From: Pseudomonadota bacterium
Lineage (GTDB): Bacteria > Pseudomonadota > Alphaproteobacteria > Paracaedibacterales > CAIOTO01
Length of the DNA stretch: 64,000 nt
Direction: 5' to 3'
Assembly: GCA_040387495.1 (NCBI GenBank)
Contig: JAZKDQ010000008.1
Location: 1 to 64,000, forward strand
Shown: piece by piece, positions 56,979 to 64,000 of the stretch
Layout: each line of letters opens with the position of its first letter
Position numbering within the stretch: position 1 is the first letter of the stretch
The notes under the pieces: generated by a model
The model's database searches: none
Told to the model about the DNA's origin: nothing
What the model saw: the letters and a program-made list of their open reading frames with translations, nothing else
Translations under genes and position numbers: made by a program

Positions 56979-59111
56979 ATGAAATTATACCCAGGTTCTC
57001 CTCAACATTCACGTGAAGAGAAAAAATTAAAAGAAAAACCTAAAAAAGCTGAACGCTCAAGAAAAGCCAAAAAAACCTCAAAAACCTTTTTTTCACGTAT
57101 TATGGGCAAAATGATTTATGCCTTTTTTATGATAGGAGTTTGGGGTGGAATTATTTTAACATTAGCTGTGCTCTGGTTTTCTCAAGATCTGCCGGATCTT
57201 GGTGCTTTGTCCGTTCAATCACGTAAACCGAGTGTAGTTGTCCAAACGCATGATGGTACAATCTTGGGAACGTATGGTGACCTGTATGAAGATATGGTTC
57301 CAGTAGCGGATTTGCCTGCTTATGTCCCACAAGCTCTTATGGCAGTTGAAGATCGCCGTTTTGAGTATCATTTTGGTGTAGATTTTATTGGTCTTATTCG
57401 CGCTGCATACACAAATTATAAAGCTCAGCGAGTCGTGCAAGGGGGATCAACTTTAACGCAACAGCTAGCGAAGAACATTTTGCAAACTCATGGGCTATTT
57501 TCGATTCAAGATAGATCCATGAAACGTAAAATTCAGGAAGTTCTTCTAGCGCTTTGGCTTGAGTGGAAATTCACAAAGCCTCAAATTATGACGATGTATC
57601 TGAACCGTGTTTATTTGGGTTCTGCAACCTATGGTATTGACGCTGCAGCACGTACATATTTTAATAAGTCTGCGCGAAATCTTACTGTTTTTGAAGCTGC
57701 AATTATTGCAGGTCTTTTAAAAGCGCCTTCTAGTTACACGCCTTCGAAAAATCCTAAGAAATCAATAGAACGTGCCACCACTGTGCTTCGCTTGATGCAG
57801 GAAGCTGGGTATATAAAAGAATATGAAAGCCATTTAAGGCAAGGTGAGGTCGACCTTGCAAATATCCAGCTTGCTCAAGGGAAGGGCGGAAAGTATTTTG
57901 CTGATTGGGTGTATGATTCTATACCATCTGTTATCGGTCCAATATCGAAAGACATTGTCGTTATTACGACGCTTGACACAGATATGCAACGTCACGCGGA
58001 AATGGTAACAAAATATTATAATGAAACGATGGGTAAAGAATTAAAAGCTACTCAGATTGCTTTTATTGCAATGTCCCCTGATGGTGCGGTGAAGGCATTG
58101 ATTGGTGGACGAAATTATGCTGAAAGTCAGTATAATCGCGCAACGCAAGCGTTTCGACAGCCTGGATCTGCTTTTAAAACATTCGTGTATTTAGCTGCAA
58201 TGGAAGCAGGCATGACACCACAAACAATGATGAATGACACGCCTTACAACAACGGTAAATATAGCCCTAGCAATTTTAAATATATCTCACAGGGTGAAAC
58301 GAATTTACGAACTGCTTTTACAAAATCGGTTAATAGTATATCGGTTAGAATAACTGAAAAGGTAACACCACTACGTGTCGCAGAAACTGCACAACGTTTG
58401 GGGATTAGCCGTCCATTGCCAAATATGCTTAGTATTGCGCTTGGTGCAGGTGAGACTACGCTTTTAGAATTAACGGCTGCGCATGCAACATTTGCGAATA
58501 AGGGCTATGCCGTTTGGCCTTATAGTATTGTTGAAATTCGTGATAAGGAAGGAAATATTTTATATCAATACACTGAACCACCAAAACAAAGAATCATTGC
58601 AGCAACGCCACTTAGTTCAATGCGAGAATTACTACGAGCAAATATTGAATCAGGCTCTGGCCGTGCGGCAAATATGGACTCTACTGTTGGGGGAAAAACA
58701 GGTAGTAACGGTGATAAAGATGCATTCTTTTTAGGCTATCGTGAAGATTATGGAACATCTGACCAGGGATATGCCAATGTTGTGTTTGGTGCCTGGGTTG
58801 GAAATGATAGTGGTTCTCCAATGGCAAAGATCTCAACCGGAGGCAAAATACCAACTCGTGTTTGTTCGGATTTCTTAAAAGGGCCCAATACAGCTCTGGC
58901 AAATAGTGCAAAGACTGCTCCTGTTGTGCCAACAGCTGTGGCTGAACAAAAATCAGTTGTTGTGAAAGCTAGATCATCAGCCACTGTCTCTGTTAAAAAT
59001 GATAAGCCTGTTATGAAAAGGGAAACTCCACCAAAAATAATAAAAGAAGAAAAAAAATTACAGATAAAAGAGGAAAAACGGCCACAAACATTAGATGATT
59101 TATTTCAATAA
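56979..59111 (+). CDS. class A penicillin-binding protein (transglycosylase/transpeptidase)
   Basis: EDRRF..HFG, GGSTLTQQLAKN, RK.QE, RQPGSAFK (SxxK), SVN, KTG. Confidence 0.92.
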   Translation: MKLYPGSPQHSREEKKLKEKPKKAERSRKAKKTSKTFFSRIMGKMIYAFFMIGVWGGIILTLAVLWFSQDLPDLGALSVQSRKPSVVVQTHDGTILGTYGDLYEDMVPVADLPAYVPQALMAVEDRRFEYHFGVDFIGLIRAAYTNYKAQRVVQGGSTLTQQLAKNILQTHGLFSIQDRSMKRKIQEVLLALWLEWKFTKPQIMTMYLNRVYLGSATYGIDAAARTYFNKSARNLTVFEAAIIAGLLKAPSSYTPSKNPKKSIERATTVLRLMQEAGYIKEYESHLRQGEVDLANIQLAQGKGGKYFADWVYDSIPSVIGPISKDIVVITTLDTDMQRHAEMVTKYYNETMGKELKATQIAFIAMSPDGAVKALIGGRNYAESQYNRATQAFRQPGSAFKTFVYLAAMEAGMTPQTMMNDTPYNNGKYSPSNFKYISQGETNLRTAFTKSVNSISVRITEKVTPLRVAETAQRLGISRPLPNMLSIALGAGETTLLELTAAHATFANKGYAVWPYSIVEIRDKEGNILYQYTEPPKQRIIAATPLSSMRELLRANIESGSGRAANMDSTVGGKTGSNGDKDAFFLGYREDYGTSDQGYANVVFGAWVGNDSGSPMAKISTGGKIPTRVCSDFLKGPNTALANSAKTAPVVPTAVAEQKSVVVKARSSATVSVKNDKPVMKRETPPKIIKEEKKLQIKEEKRPQTLDDLFQ

Positions 59112-59116
59112 AATCT

Positions 59117-59866
59117 TTATGGTTTAATTCCTTCATGGAAAGCAACAATTCCTTGCGACCACGCTGTGCCTTGGACTTTTCCAAAGCCTGTCTCGCACAA
59201 CTCCCGGTTCAACTGTTGTCGATCAGGGAATTTGCGAATACTTTCTGCTAAGTACTGGTAAGCTGACTCATCTTTTGCTATGTGTTTTCCTAGAAAAGGA
59301 AGAACGGAAAAAGAATAGAGATCATATATTTTCTGTAAATGAGGTTGTTCTAATTGGCTAAACTCAAGGCAATAAAAACGTCCACCTGGTTTTAAGACAC
59401 GAAAGGCCTCGCTTAACGCTTTAGTTCGGTCAGCGACATTGCGCAGGCCAAAACTAATTGTATACACATCTACGGAATTATCACCCAAGGGGAGCGTCTC
59501 AGCTTGTCCTGTAACCCATTCAATATTTTTAATAATACCTTGATCGATGGCTTTTCTGCGACCTTCTTCAAGCATGCTTGGTGTTAAATCAATAAGTGTC
59601 GTTCTTAATTTCAAAAAGGGTAGTGTTTTATGCAATAGTATACTGATATCGCCGGTGCCACCAGCTACATCAATAATATGATCGTTTTCACGTAAATGCA
59701 TACGACCAATAAAAGAACGCTTCCACCGTCGGTGTAATCCGACGCTCATGAGGTCATTCATAACATCGTAGTTTGATGAAACACGGCTGAACAGATCTTG
59801 CACAAGGGATGTTTTTTGTGGTCTTGGTATTTGTTTGAAACCAAAATCTGTCCAGTCGGTCGTCAT
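59117..59866 (-). CDS. ubiE: ubiquinone/menaquinone biosynthesis C-methyltransferase
   Basis: YDVMNDLMS.GLHR.WK, DVAGGTGD, FGLRNV, YLAESIRKFP. Confidence 0.95.
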   Translation of the reverse strand: MTTDWTDFGFKQIPRPQKTSLVQDLFSRVSSNYDVMNDLMSVGLHRRWKRSFIGRMHLRENDHIIDVAGGTGDISILLHKTLPFLKLRTTLIDLTPSMLEEGRRKAIDQGIIKNIEWVTGQAETLPLGDNSVDVYTISFGLRNVADRTKALSEAFRVLKPGGRFYCLEFSQLEQPHLQKIYDLYSFSVLPFLGKHIAKDESAYQYLAESIRKFPDRQQLNRELCETGFGKVQGTAWSQGIVAFHEGIKP

Positions 59867-59872
59867 ATTTGA

Positions 59873-60865
59873 TTAGTCCTCGAATGTTTCAATTGTGTCT
59901 TGTTGGTACGTAATTCCAAGTTTTTCTGCAACAACTGGATTCATCTTTGCATGGATCTTTTTTGGCATCTCAACTGGTATTGAGCTTGGTAGTTCATCTA
60001 ATAGAATACGGTGAGCCATTCTTCCTGCTTGTTTACCCAGTTCATACTGATCTGGTCCAAGTGCAGCAAGTGCACCTTTATCAAGACAATCAGTATCGCT
60101 TGTGAAAACAGGGATATTACTTTCATTCGCAACTTTTACAATAACGTCAATTGCGGATAAAGCTGTGTTATCATTATTAATAAAAATTGCTTGTGATTTT
60201 TGTAGTAAATTTTGTGTTGCAGTCATAACATCACTTGTTTTTGTCGCAGCAGTTGTGTGAATTGTAATGTCAAATACATCTGAAACTTCATTCATTTTAT
60301 TGATCATCGAAACTGAATTTGCTTCACCCGGATTATACACAGAGCCTAATTGTTTTAAGTGTGGTATAAGGCGTTTGAAAAATGAAAATTGTTTTGAAAT
60401 GGATATAAAATTACTAACTCCTGTTACATTCTTTCCTGGCTTTTCAAGTGAATCAACAAGTTTTGCTTGCAATGGGTCCGTCACTGAAACGAATATCACA
60501 GGAATTTTATTTTCCTGTGTAGCTTGTTTTGCTGCTTGCGCGACTGTCGTGCCTATGGCGATAATGACGTCTGCCTTTAATCCAATAAACTTTTGCACAA
60601 TTTGTGTTGCTAGTGCTGGATTTCCCTGTGCGGATTCATAATAAACACGCGAATTACTTTTTTCTGTATAACCGTGTTCTTTTAAAATATCCATAATGCC
60701 TGCTCGCGTTTGATCAAGTGCGGGGTGTTCTACTACTTGTAAAATTCCAACAATATACATTCCATCATCCAAAGCTGGCCTGGCGTTTGGAGATGCATAT
60801 CTTTTCCAAGAAATCACTGCAATGACTACCGTGAGAACGACCAGTGTATACGCTTTTATTTTCAT
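59873..60865 (-). CDS. ABC transporter substrate-binding protein (TrpX-like, aromatic amino acid binding family)
   Basis: VEHPALD, AQGN, VTDP, NVTGVS, YNPGEANS, NDNT. Confidence 0.85.
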   Translation of the reverse strand: MKIKAYTLVVLTVVIAVISWKRYASPNARPALDDGMYIVGILQVVEHPALDQTRAGIMDILKEHGYTEKSNSRVYYESAQGNPALATQIVQKFIGLKADVIIAIGTTVAQAAKQATQENKIPVIFVSVTDPLQAKLVDSLEKPGKNVTGVSNFISISKQFSFFKRLIPHLKQLGSVYNPGEANSVSMINKMNEVSDVFDITIHTTAATKTSDVMTATQNLLQKSQAIFINNDNTALSAIDVIVKVANESNIPVFTSDTDCLDKGALAALGPDQYELGKQAGRMAHRILLDELPSSIPVEMPKKIHAKMNPVVAEKLGITYQQDTIETFED

Positions 60866-60912
60866 AATTAATGTTCCTTAGTGATTTGAAATGTTGATTT
60901 GAATTCTTTTTC

Positions 60913-61857
60913 TTAATGCTGGGGAGAGCCCAGCGTCATATGTAACTCAACATTTTTATTCACGTATTCACTTATTTTGACACAATTCTCGATAGGTATT
61001 ACATCGGTTTTCTCTCCGTTTAATAGACGAATAATCATTTTTCCTGCTTGTGTTCCAATAGCATACTGATCGGACGCTACTGCAGCTGTGCACCCACGTT
61101 CTACTGATTCTGGGTCTGAAGAGAAAACAGGAATTTTGTGTTCTTGTGTTATTTTTAAAACTGAAGTCAACGCTGAAATAACAGTGTTATCATTTGGCAA
61201 ATAGATAGCATCAACCTTGTCAATTAAGTATGTTGTTGCTTGATTTACAGCAACAGTGGATGCTGCTGCTGATAGAATGATTTTGCCACCTGACGCTTTA
61301 ATTTCTGCTTCTACCTTTTTAATTTGGCTTAATGAATTAGCTTCACCTGGATTGTAAATAATACCTATGGTCAGCGCTTTCTTTTTGAGGATGCTTTGCA
61401 TTTGATTGATTTGCGCTTTGTATGGGGGAGCGTCTGTTACACCTGTTATAAAAGGGATGTTTAAGCCGTTAGGGGTAGCGAGACGTGCTTCAACAGGATC
61501 TGTTACTGCTACAAAAACAAGAGGAATCTCTTTTGAAAATGCAGCAGCATATACTGTTTGCGCCGATGGTGTTGTAATAGGAACGATAACGCTGGGTTTA
61601 AGGCTTACAAAGCGCTGAGCGATTTGTGTTGCAGTAGCTACATTGCCTTGGGCATTTTGGAAAATGATTTCAACATCCTTATGTTTGCTGGCTTTTATCG
61701 TATCAATTATACCTTCTCTGATACGATCAAGGGATGGATGTGGTGCAATTTGTGTGATAGCCACAACATTTTTCTTATTTGGAGATTTTTTTATAACATA
61801 AAAACTGGTGACAAGAGCAAGCGCAGCAATGCTGGCTATAGCGATTTTTTTAAACAT
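60913..61857 (-). CDS. ABC transporter substrate-binding protein (TrpX-like), paralog
   Basis: HPSLD, NAQGN, TPSAQ, AVTDP, ITGVTD, YNPGEANS, PNDNTV; start placed at MFKKIA. Confidence 0.85.
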   Translation of the reverse strand: MFKKIAIASIAALALVTSFYVIKKSPNKKNVVAITQIAPHPSLDRIREGIIDTIKASKHKDVEIIFQNAQGNVATATQIAQRFVSLKPSVIVPITTPSAQTVYAAAFSKEIPLVFVAVTDPVEARLATPNGLNIPFITGVTDAPPYKAQINQMQSILKKKALTIGIIYNPGEANSLSQIKKVEAEIKASGGKIILSAAASTVAVNQATTYLIDKVDAIYLPNDNTVISALTSVLKITQEHKIPVFSSDPESVERGCTAAVASDQYAIGTQAGKMIIRLLNGEKTDVIPIENCVKISEYVNKNVELHMTLGSPQH

Positions 61858-61904
61858 GATAGGTGCCTTTTTCGAATACATAGATTGACAGATAATGCGA
61901 ACGC

Positions 61905-61955
61905 TTAGTTAGCGTGATGTCGCCATCGCCAATGCTTGTTTTGAAAAAGAATCAT
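61905..61955 (-). promoter_or_regulatory. putative Trp leader peptide / attenuator (MILFQNKHWRWRHHAN)
   Basis: AGGAG (61964-61968) 8 nt before ATG; two TGG codons; hairpin overlapping the Trp codons; ends 47 nt before a TrpX-like gene. Confidence 0.65.
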
Positions 61956-62041
61956 TGATAAAACTCCTAAATTTAATTGAGTATATCAGTTGATAGCAAT
62001 GTGTGTACAGAAAAAAGTGTGCGTACGAATAATAGTGACAA

Positions 62042-62479
62042 TCAGTCTTTTGTATATCTCGTTGTAATCTCGTAATCTTTGTTTGTTCCACTAATTTTAT
62101 AATGTATATCAAAACATTGTTCTGCCTTTACAATCAATGTGCATTTATATATGTCTTGCCCACATAAATGAGTGTGATTTAGGGTGATAGGGTATGATGT
62201 ATGGTTACTCTCAAAATCAAATTTGTGGAGTAAAGAATGATCGCTTTTATAAATAGTGAGAACGTTCATATCGTATGAAAAAATTCGTTTCTGAAAAAAA
62301 TCATAAGCAATTTCGTCAACGGTGTAGGTTCCGTATTCGTGATAGCTTAGGGTATTTTCCGATAATTTTTTAAATGTGGCTGCACCTTTTATATGCAGTG
62401 CTGGCTTTGATATAGAACGCTCAAAATTCCATAATCCAGAAAAATGCTTTAAAAATTCTGCGAATACATTTTGTGCCAA
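62042..62479 (-). CDS. conserved hypothetical protein (DUF6314-like)
   Basis: G.W...R.I, G.ATF, Y.E.G, H.CG.D.Y, GTNKDY.I.T.Y pattern. Confidence 0.65.
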   Translation of the reverse strand: MAQNVFAEFLKHFSGLWNFERSISKPALHIKGAATFKKLSENTLSYHEYGTYTVDEIAYDFFQKRIFSYDMNVLTIYKSDHSLLHKFDFESNHTSYPITLNHTHLCGQDIYKCTLIVKAEQCFDIHYKISGTNKDYEITTRYTKD

Positions 62480-62650
62480 CGTATATAAGTTCTTTTGCTA
62501 TGGAAGATGTTTATTATATAGTACATTTTGCTTTGAATCGTCCAGCATTCACATGTGGAAGCTGTATTATTGATTGTTAACCATTTTAAAGTGGAGTTGC
62601 TTTATGGTATCCTTTTACAAAATCACCAGTTAAACCAGGGGCATCTATTA

Positions 62651-63094
62651 ATGGAACATGAGAAAATTAAAAAGAAGAGTGTGAAAGAAAAATCGGTCAA
62701 AAGCGCGATATCTAAAGCTGCCCAGATTGATGACGTATATGATGCTGTGGTTTCTGAAGAAGATGAGCAGCATGCGCGTGCAAAATTACGTGAATTAAAA
62801 AAGTTTTATACGGATTTGCTGGTTTACGGTGTTGTTTGCGCATGTTCAATTATTGTTTGGCTGTCTATGGGGGCAGGAACGTTTTGGCCTATCTGGGTTA
62901 TTATAGGGTGTGGTATCAATGTAGCGTTAAAAGGTATTTCACTTGGACAAATTCCATTGCTTGAAGAGTTTTTCCCATTTTTAGGAAATTCGTGGGAAGA
63001 ATCTCAGCTTGAAAAGGTTTTGAACCGTTCAAATGATCATGGCGCAACTGAAAATCAACATTCAGATTATGATGTGAATCACAAATCGGATTAG
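62651..63094 (+). CDS. 2TM-domain membrane protein
   Basis: A..KL.ELKKFY..L..Y, FWPIW...G.GI, WEE..LEK; start placed at MEHEK. Confidence 0.7.
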   Translation: MEHEKIKKKSVKEKSVKSAISKAAQIDDVYDAVVSEEDEQHARAKLRELKKFYTDLLVYGVVCACSIIVWLSMGAGTFWPIWVIIGCGINVALKGISLGQIPLLEEFFPFLGNSWEESQLEKVLNRSNDHGATENQHSDYDVNHKSD

Positions 63095-63099
63095 TTTTA

Positions 63100-64000
63100 A
63101 TGTTGAGGGCTATTTATCGCATCTTAAAGGTTATTACCATTTGCCTTGGTGCTTTTGCGTGTGCAGTGATGGCTCTTTTATATTATTGCGGGCGTGATTT
63201 ACCTAATCATGCCTTTTTACAAAACTATAAGCCTCCAGAGGGCTCCCGTATTTACAATAGTAATAATGAACTTTATCGAGAATTCGTTTCTGAATATCGT
63301 ATTTTCGTCCCTATTCATGAAATTCCTCCTCAGCTTATAAAAGCATTTTTGGCAGCAGAAGATAAAAATTTTTATTATCACCCTGGTGTTGATGTATTTA
63401 GTTTATTTAGGGCAGTTATCCGAAATACATTGCATAGAAAATGGCACGCAAAACCTGTTGGGGCCTCTACGATTACACAACAAGTTGCAAAGAATTTTCT
63501 GGTTGGAAATGATCAATCGGTTATGCGAAAGGTTCGTGAGGCGATTATGTCTATGCGAATTGAAGGCGCTTTGTCTAAAGATCGCATTCTCGAGCTTTAC
63601 TTTAACCAAATTTACCTTGGTATGCGAAGTTATGGTGTTGCTGCTGCTGCGTATACCTATTTCCAAAAACCACTTCATGAACTAACGCTTGTTGAATGCG
63701 CTTTTTTAGCGTCTCTTCCAAAAGCACCTGCAAACTATCATCCGATTCGAGAACAAAAAAAAGCTTTAATGCGCAGAAATGCAACTTTGCGGCGTTTAGC
63801 AGAAGACGGGGAAATTACATATGAGGCTGCGCAAGAGGCGCAGAATGAGCCATTAAATGTTTCGTTACCTGAACGTTTAAATCAAATCACTTATGTAAGT
63901 GAGGAGATTCGGCGTGAACTTATGCAACGCTTTAAGGATGGTGCCGTTTACCAAGAAGGCTATTCAATTTATACCTCGCTTGATGCCAATATTCAAACAC
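63100..64000 (+). CDS. mrcA: penicillin-binding protein 1A, 5' part running off the window
   Basis: MLRAIYR...TM...DLP..AFLQNYKPP, AFLAAEDKNFYYHPGVD, GASTITQQVAKNF, ILELYFNQIYLG; absent from the ORF track because no stop lies in the window. Confidence 0.88.
   Translation, partial: MLRAIYRILKVITICLGAFACAVMALLYYCGRDLPNHAFLQNYKPPEGSRIYNSNNELYREFVSEYRIFVPIHEIPPQLIKAFLAAEDKNFYYHPGVDVFSLFRAVIRNTLHRKWHAKPVGASTITQQVAKNFLVGNDQSVMRKVREAIMSMRIEGALSKDRILELYFNQIYLGMRSYGVAAAAYTYFQKPLHELTLVECAFLASLPKAPANYHPIREQKKALMRRNATLRRLAEDGEITYEAAQEAQNEPLNVSLPERLNQITYVSEEIRRELMQRFKDGAVYQEGYSIYTSLDANIQT

Follow-up and report, generated by a model that had tools for sequence, protein, structure and literature searches.

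A tryptophan-codon leader ORF with a co-evolving hairpin ahead of PF04392 binding-protein genes: a candidate translational attenuator conserved in an order of intracellular Alphaproteobacteria

Background

Leaders that act by translational attenuation, such as those of ermC, cat and cmlA, have a Shine–Dalgarno sequence (SD) of their own, and a ribosome stalled on such a leader frees a downstream SD that is otherwise locked by the leader hairpin. The leader peptide TnaC carries a motif with strict residue spacing to the stop codon. For tryptophan, leader control is known from attenuation by Trp-rich leader peptides in the biosynthetic operons of free-living bacteria, and from tryptophan importers of the PF04392 family, which are under T-box control. 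The T-box of trpXYZ in Streptococcus suis is about 460 nt long, binds the tRNA directly and ends in a terminator (PMC9382623). Three solved relatives of the importer binding proteins, 6HNI, 3LKV and 3LFT, bind Tyr, Phe and Trp, respectively, and their specificity is ascribed to two positions located 16 residues apart, occupied by Glu/Tyr, Ala/Tyr and Ala/Gln in the same order (PMC6816091).

In this study, a short Trp-containing leader ORF ahead of two tandem binding-protein genes was analyzed in a stretch of 64,000 nucleotides (hereafter the window, meaning that whole stretch). An earlier note, written from the letters of the window alone, had drawn attention to this leader and suggested a tryptophan sensor wired to an importer in an alphaproteobacterial symbiont.

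Results

The leader ORF and its surroundings

On the minus strand, the leader ORF is followed by the gene of binding protein 1, a 47-nt gap, the gene of binding protein 2 and, 6 nt further, ubiE (Table 1). The earlier note had described an AGGAG-N8-ATG ORF of 16 aa with two Trp codons, located 47 nt before a binding-protein gene; reading the minus strand confirmed this description, the ORF being MILFQNKHWRWRHHAN and the distance running from its stop codon to the ATG of binding protein 1 at 61857. Because a same-genus relative carries a stop codon between both ATGs, the ATG at 61857 is regarded as the conserved start, while the one at 61881, which belongs to a longer ORF of binding protein 1, is not conserved.

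Table 1 Coordinates of the leader elements and of the two binding-protein genes in the window
Feature	Positions	Strand	Remarks
Promoter-like site	61980..62009	-	TGTACA, 18 nt, TG-extended TATACT; consensus scan only
Leader ORF Shine–Dalgarno AGGAG	61964..61968	-	Outside the hairpin; followed by 8 nt and the leader ATG (61955-61953)
Leader ORF	61905..61955	-	16 codons + TAA (61907-61905); invariant His-Trp = codons 8-9; second Trp = codon 11
Anti-SD segment	61943..61949	-	Within leader codons 3-5; pairs with the SD of binding protein 1
Trp-Arg-Trp codons TGG CGA TGG	61923..61931	-	Trp codons at 61931-61929 and 61925-61923; base-paired to the 3' arm at rest
Apical hairpin, 5 bp, 5-nt loop	61901..61915	-	Contains the leader stop codon
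Whole leader hairpin	61855..61955	-	Leader ATG to binding-protein 1 ATG
SD region of binding protein 1, GAAAAAGG	61866..61873	-	Sequestered in the resting fold
Binding protein 1	60913..61857	-	314 aa, PF04392
Binding protein 2	59873..60865	-	330 aa, PF04392 paralogue; 47 nt downstream of binding protein 1

Taken alone, the leader ORF is not beyond chance, and it is its conservation in relatives that lifts it above: the genome holds 71,412 small ORFs of 10–30 aa, at least two Trp occur in 2377 of them, and 217 of these are also preceded by an SD-like word. Scanning the same genome for the peptide pattern yielded no second convincing copy, just this one. The promoter-like site would set the transcript start a few bases 5' of the leader SD, with the proviso that the consensus scan gave as many such sites in the region as expected from shuffles; in same-genus relatives the upstream genes differ, and sequence conservation begins at this site.

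In agreement with the earlier note, which had seen no GC-rich hairpin followed by a U-tract, no terminator-like site was found in the leader (61855–61975), the sole two sites of the scanned region lying inside the binding-protein 2 gene. When 59000–64000 was scanned with Rfam 15 at E-values up to 10, the leader had no match (neither Trp_leader nor T-box), and the sole hit was a weak, unrelated sRNA match at 63262–63427.

As to the neighbourhood, the ubiE methyltransferase gene (59117–59866, minus strand) may be co-transcribed with binding protein 2, which would be unusual company for genes of amino-acid uptake. Class A penicillin-binding proteins (transglycosylase + transpeptidase) are encoded on both sides (56979–59111 and 63100–63999, both on the plus strand), which is notable for a 1.66-Mb genome, the second one being assigned from its sequence alone. 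The upstream neighbours are a DUF6314 protein (62042–62479, minus strand) and a 2TM-domain protein of no assigned function (62555–63094, plus strand).

Occurrence of the leader in relatives

The sample comprised 41 genomes of the same order, this genome included. Among the best 30 loci given by a protein search, an intact leader ORF of 14–19 codons, chosen by eye among all listed small Trp-containing ORFs, ends 36–78 nt before the orthologous gene in 29. The thirtieth locus (L023, the same as L045) has the same leader, but codon 5 is followed by an in-frame TAA at a place occupied by CAA in sister genomes, and this interruption is either a natural leader knock-out or an assembly error. For the remaining 11 genomes the best hits were taken, and the leader was present in five and absent from six, the latter offering only distant paralogues, loci at contig ends or incomplete assemblies. 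Thus, the leader occurs in 34 of the 41 genomes and in 9 of the 10 families of the order, and the conservation of a Trp-containing short ORF upstream of the orthologues, a check that the earlier note had named beforehand, was borne out.

A scan of public collections, with one genome per species, left 80 loci. The leader was found in 19 of them (eight from genomes outside the 41-genome count), and its carriers include Ca. Finniella and Ca. Odyssella thessalonicensis (strain record L13). No hit was obtained at 57 loci, which comprise all homologues of Azospirillum, Halomonas, Motiliproteus and similar bacteria, and also contain the interrupted leader L045 and the run-on variant L059; the other four gave unrelated motif hits in GC-rich genomes. 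The leader was absent from paralogues in the same genomes, from the region upstream of the third paralogue of this genome (contig 7, in a permease operon) and from the Holosporales UBA9215. The full texts searched, with subscription journals and supplements outside the scope, held no description of it.

A covariance model (R1) trained on six sequences of the genus, and too narrow for other families, gave 12 matches across 62 sources; six of these were the sequences used for training, five were others and one was spurious. Among the 41 genomes it matched 8, once per genome within the genus. One weak R1 hit (G018:C13, E = 0.054) is located away from the binding-protein locus of that genome. The run-on variant L059 (UBA1908, positions 1266–1424) had escaped the peptide scan and was detected by R1 (25 bits, E = 0.055): it has an H-R-W-W-R-W core and the anti-SD/SD pairing, no nearby stop, and an ORF of 52 codons that overlaps the binding-protein start in another frame.

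Conserved codons of the leader peptide

In an alignment of 28 leaders, the only invariant element inside the ORF is C..TGG, which encodes [Arg/His]-Trp in 28/28. With this invariant Trp taken as the anchor, position −1 is always either CGA (17 leaders) or CAT (11). Arg occupies position +1 in 21 of the 28 (CGA 12, CGG 5, CGT 2, CGC 2), with Trp there in six and His in one, while position +4 is His in 21 (CAC 13, CAT 8). The stop codon is found at +7 in 19 leaders from six families, at +8 in three (this lineage), at +4 in three, at +5 in two and at +6 in one. Each leader has one to three Trp codons, a single one being present in 6/28, and an SD-like word lies 5' of the leader start in 19/28.

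That synonymous codons alternate at +1 and +4 suggests that selection acts on the peptide or on the tRNAs reading these codons. Position −1, on the other hand, is constrained at the level of the codon or the bases, since only CGA and CAT occur there while CGA makes up just 11.8% of the Arg codons in this genome. The fixed CGA/CAT before UGG, together with the Arg/His context, may reflect a codon-pair or nascent-chain effect on Trp decoding.

Folding and co-evolution of the leader hairpin

The long imperfect stem proposed by the earlier note was recovered as the MFE fold of positions 61845–61975, a single long imperfect hairpin of −29.6 kcal/mol (z = −2.94; 1 of 200 shuffles as good), in which the key pairing joins leader nucleotides 61949–61943 to the SD of binding protein 1 (61873–61866). 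The alternative pairing of the same note (TTCG-CAT with ATG-tatt-CGAA) proved weak: constrained folds retained just a 4-bp GCAU/AUGU helix, and the SD pairs instead with the 5' half of the leader ORF. One long hairpin was the MFE fold of all 29 leaders folded. At least four of the six nucleotides of the SD core were paired to bases of the leader ORF in 28/29 folds, the anchor Trp codon was paired to the 3' arm in 26/29, and the leader stop codon was placed in the hairpin loop in 14/29 and in the loop or no more than 5 nt from it in 29/29.

As the paired sequences differ between families, duplex energies were compared between cognate and swapped partners. The anti-SD/SD duplex had a mean of −12.2 kcal/mol with its cognate partner vs. 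−7.4 kcal/mol with partners from other families, and the cognate partner was the best of all in 12/29. When the set was reduced to 13 lineage representatives, 0 of 20,000 derangements reached the observed mean, both for the SD helix (−12.5 vs. −7.4) and for the whole arms (−28.3 vs. −18.8), values that are not exact probabilities since kin are not independent. The SD helix of this lineage is AU-rich and weak when taken alone (−8.9 kcal/mol, rank 4 of 23).

Within the genus, an alignment of six sequences had 21 consensus pairs, with 93.7% of the cells paired vs. 44–56% when the partners were slid, and compensatory changes were present in 8 of the 21 pairs (0 of 500 shuffles), the structure having been derived from the same six sequences. 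One of the compensatory pairs falls in the anti-SD/SD helix, being UA in four sequences and CG in two. RNAalifold on a MAFFT alignment of 28 leaders from all families gave 0 pairs, the helices being out of register. The arms of the hairpin co-evolve. In one relative from the same genus (L009), a 7-bp AU-rich hairpin holds the leader stop codon and is followed by six T, resembling a weak intrinsic terminator that is absent in the window.

Modelling of ribosome positions

When a ribosome is placed so that the first Trp codon occupies its A site, the bases that pair with the SD are located −24 to −5 nt from the P site (median −14), hence at the rear edge of the waiting ribosome, and 60% of them fall within −15 to −1 of the stalled P site; one family (5 leaders) has them at −16 to −24, beyond the footprint. 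In partition-function models, in which the exposure of the SD depends on the ribosome footprint that is assumed, the mean unpaired probability of the SD was 0.28 without a ribosome, 0.42 when one occupied the first Trp and again 0.28 when it stood at the stop codon. Folding with and without the footprint, which the earlier note had put forward, raised the modelled exposure of the SD at the first Trp only modestly, and the largest modelled gain came from a ribosome on codons 2–6, not at Trp. In the leader of the window, a ribosome at the first Trp abolishes the SD helix; one at the second Trp does so only if the footprint reaches −15. The models moderately favour a picture in which pausing before the apex would open the SD and termination at the apex would not.

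Binding proteins and amino-acid requirements

Binding proteins 1 and 2 reach 205 and 279 bits with Pfam PF04392 (ABC_sub_bind), above its gathering cut-off of 25.9, and 224.9 and 252.9 bits with the NCBIfam model of TrpX (NF041285), below its equivalog cut-off of 390 in both cases. Mapped by alignment, both proteins have Asp/Gln at the two specificity positions and the third paralogue has Asp/Arg; D248 and Q264 are invariant in 14 orthologues. The Gln is shared with the Trp binder 3LFT, while the Asp at the first position is unlike any solved relative (PMC6816091). The label 'TrpX-like' of the earlier note is thereby upheld as far as the Pfam family goes, and not at the level of TrpX itself, both proteins being far below the NCBIfam cut-off and having Asp/Gln instead of the Ala/Gln of the Trp binder. 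An aromatic ligand, possibly Trp, is plausible from these residues.

In this genome, no permease gene adjoins the two binding-protein genes. The sole permease gene is located on another contig next to the third paralogue, so the tandem pair must use the same translocator as that paralogue. In one family, to which Ca. Odyssella belongs, the leader is followed by two or three binding-protein genes and then directly by the permease in 5/5 genomes, and this order ties the leader to an importer. The link to an importer claimed by the earlier note was accordingly seen in that family and not beside the pair in the window. In two families (G013, G021, G033, G015) the leader heads three tandem paralogues, not two, which suggests a leader-controlled cassette of exchangeable specificities. 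In a 79% complete relative (L012:568–2490, minus strand), binding-protein genes 1 and 2 form a single frame of 641 codons, through either fusion of the tandem pair or loss of a stop codon.

None of the 41 genomes of the order yielded a TrpA hit; in this genome, which is 99.9% complete, IGPS was not found, and HisD and ArgG were not found either. The TrpA result fits the symbiont setting assumed by the earlier note, as do the relatives Ca. Finniella and Ca. Odyssella. Because Trp is the sole invariant residue of the leader and TrpA and IGPS were not found, we infer that tryptophan is the trigger; the conserved His and Arg codons could add sensitivity to these amino acids, given that HisD and ArgG were not found.

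Discussion

The reading that we favour, and to which we give slightly better than an even chance, is that translation is attenuated in the manner of erm/cat, with the pausing of ribosomes at the Trp codon(s) as the trigger. Control at the level of translation is supported by the co-evolution of the anti-SD/SD pairing, and of the two modes that the earlier note had allowed, translational or Rho-dependent, this evidence speaks for the former; with the gene for Rho present in the genome, a transcriptional component may contribute. In such a mechanism, the promoter would set the transcript start just 5' of the 16-codon leader ORF, and the resting leader RNA would form a single long hairpin in which codons 3–5 mask the SD of the binding protein, the 3' arm holds the region of the Trp codons and the apical loop carries the leader stop codon. 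A ribosome translating the leader, as we infer it to be translated, would open the 5' arm only briefly and be released at the apex, whereupon the hairpin would reclose and little binding protein would be made. When charged tRNA-Trp is scarce, a ribosome whose A site has reached the invariant Trp codon would wait there, its rear half would rest on or beside the anti-SD, and the SD would become free for initiation on the binding-protein gene. Being unable to make tryptophan, the cell would in this way answer a shortage of it by raising its capacity to take up an aromatic amino acid, probably tryptophan, from the host.

The counting of Trp codons leaves unexplained the neighbouring Arg/His, the His at +4, the use of CGA and CAT only at −1, and the stop codon at +7 in 19/28 leaders. 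These are the features from which a sequence-specific arrest peptide draws its support, with [Arg/His]-Trp-[Arg/Trp]-x-x-His as its core and stalling brought about by the nascent chain and a small molecule, independently of tRNA-Trp charging. The ligand would be a free amino acid, as for TnaC and SpeFL, or a drug acting on the basic-x-basic motif, and the output would pass through the hairpin or Rho. Conservation does extend beyond Trp (Arg/His at −1 in 28/28, Arg at +1 in 21/28 with four synonymous codons, His at +4 in 21/28), the stop codon lies exactly seven codons after the anchor Trp in those 19 leaders from six families, and six leaders manage with a single Trp codon; moreover, SpeFL reportedly carries an H-I-R-R-x-x-H sensor motif, and macrolide-dependent stalling favours basic-x-basic motifs. 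We nevertheless regard an arrest peptide as unlikely, given that the distance from Trp to stop is variable (+4, +5, +6 or +8 in 9/28), that the peptides have just 14–19 residues and that the modelled SD helix persists when a ribosome is held at the stop codon (0.28 vs. 0.28), so that a stall at termination would not open the SD. It seems rather unlikely, too, that the leaders represent a new family of regulatory nascent peptides with this core and, in most cases, a stop seven codons after the Trp, conserved across an order of obligate intracellular bacteria and stalling in the tunnel in response to an intracellular amino acid or small molecule. Were it so, the wobble-decoded CGA or CAT before UGG would tune the sensitivity, and a tunnel-based metabolite sensor would govern how two to three exchangeable binding proteins scavenge amino acids from the host. 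A secretion-monitoring arrest peptide was rejected, since a chain of 14–19 residues could not emerge from the tunnel by the time the motif is translated.

Alternatively, the position of the ribosome might decide the fate of the transcript, through Rho termination or RNase attack before the binding-protein gene, with the SD pairing being secondary. The genome does have a gene for Rho, its leader has no intrinsic terminator, and L009 of the same genus has the 7-bp hairpin and six T right after the leader stop codon. What makes this quite improbable is that the co-evolving feature in every family is the pairing of the leader ORF with the SD/start region, which is predicted by a translational switch and unneeded for Rho. 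The leader might also sense no amino acid at all and act as a constitutive translational damper or a thermosensor, its ORF merely opening the hairpin by translational coupling and its Trp, Arg and His codons being kept for pairing. The modelled exposure of the SD is indeed highest with a ribosome initiating on the leader or on codons 2–6, the region of the Trp codons is itself paired to the 3' arm in 26/29 folds, and no codon other than CGA or CAT is used at position −1. We hold this to be highly improbable, since TGG is invariant in 28/28, in contrast to the bases that it pairs with and to the majority of the remaining stem positions, the synonymous variation at the next Arg and at the His points to selection on peptide or tRNA and not on bases, and Trp accounts for just 0.95% of the codons genome-wide.

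Translational attenuation at Trp codons would represent a third solution next to biosynthetic attenuators and T-box-controlled importers, in which a leader peptide and an SD-sequestering hairpin precede uptake genes in 9 of the 10 sampled families of an order of protist endosymbionts. It would offer a compact model of about 100 nt for how symbionts with reduced genomes, lacking a regulator for the purpose, could sense that an amino acid supplied by the host is running short. The more than 40 co-varying leaders form a natural series for dissecting the geometry of the stall, and as Ca. Odyssella thessalonicensis L13 is among the carriers, experiments may be feasible.

Comparison with known systems

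With TrpL and the trp attenuator (E. coli; Sinorhizobium trpL, PMC6614838), the element has in common a short 5' leader ORF with Trp codons, a ribosome that would report the charging of tRNA-Trp, and alternative RNA pairings that set the output. It differs in having neither a U-tract terminator hairpin, on which ground a classical attenuator was rejected, nor an Rfam Trp_leader match; furthermore, it precedes an uptake binding protein in a Trp auxotroph and not biosynthesis genes, the SD is the regulated element, and Arg/His are conserved around Trp. As in the T-box of S. suis (PMC9382623), Trp limitation would control a PF04392-type binding protein and importer via the charging of tRNA-Trp, but here the leader is of roughly 100 nt, contains an ORF, and has no Rfam T-box match and no terminator. 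A T-box was rejected on the lack of an Rfam match at E up to 10 and on the conserved ORF of translated type. With TnaC, which senses free Trp (PMC8429421, PMC3902921), and with SpeFL, the element shares a location ahead of genes of amino-acid catabolism or transport and a short leader peptide in which certain residues, Trp or His/Arg among them, are conserved. TnaC and SpeFL act via Rho and, with residues at strict spacing, stall when the stop codon is reached, whereas here the anchor Trp is 4–8 codons away from the stop and SD sequestration is what is conserved.

In its presumed working, the element is closest to erm/cat, with which it shares a leader ORF that has its own SD and a downstream SD sequestered by the leader. 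The trigger for ermC, cat and cmlA is an antibiotic together with a specific nascent peptide, and resistance genes are controlled, while here it would likely be amino-acid hunger acting on an importer component; the pairing is nested here (segments 1:4 and 2:3), vs. 1:2 and 3:4 in ermC, cat and cmlA. By the defining tests of each, the element falls outside the classical attenuators, the T-boxes and TnaC. By analogy, it most likely works like erm/cat, senses like TrpL and does the job that the T-box does for trpX in streptococci.
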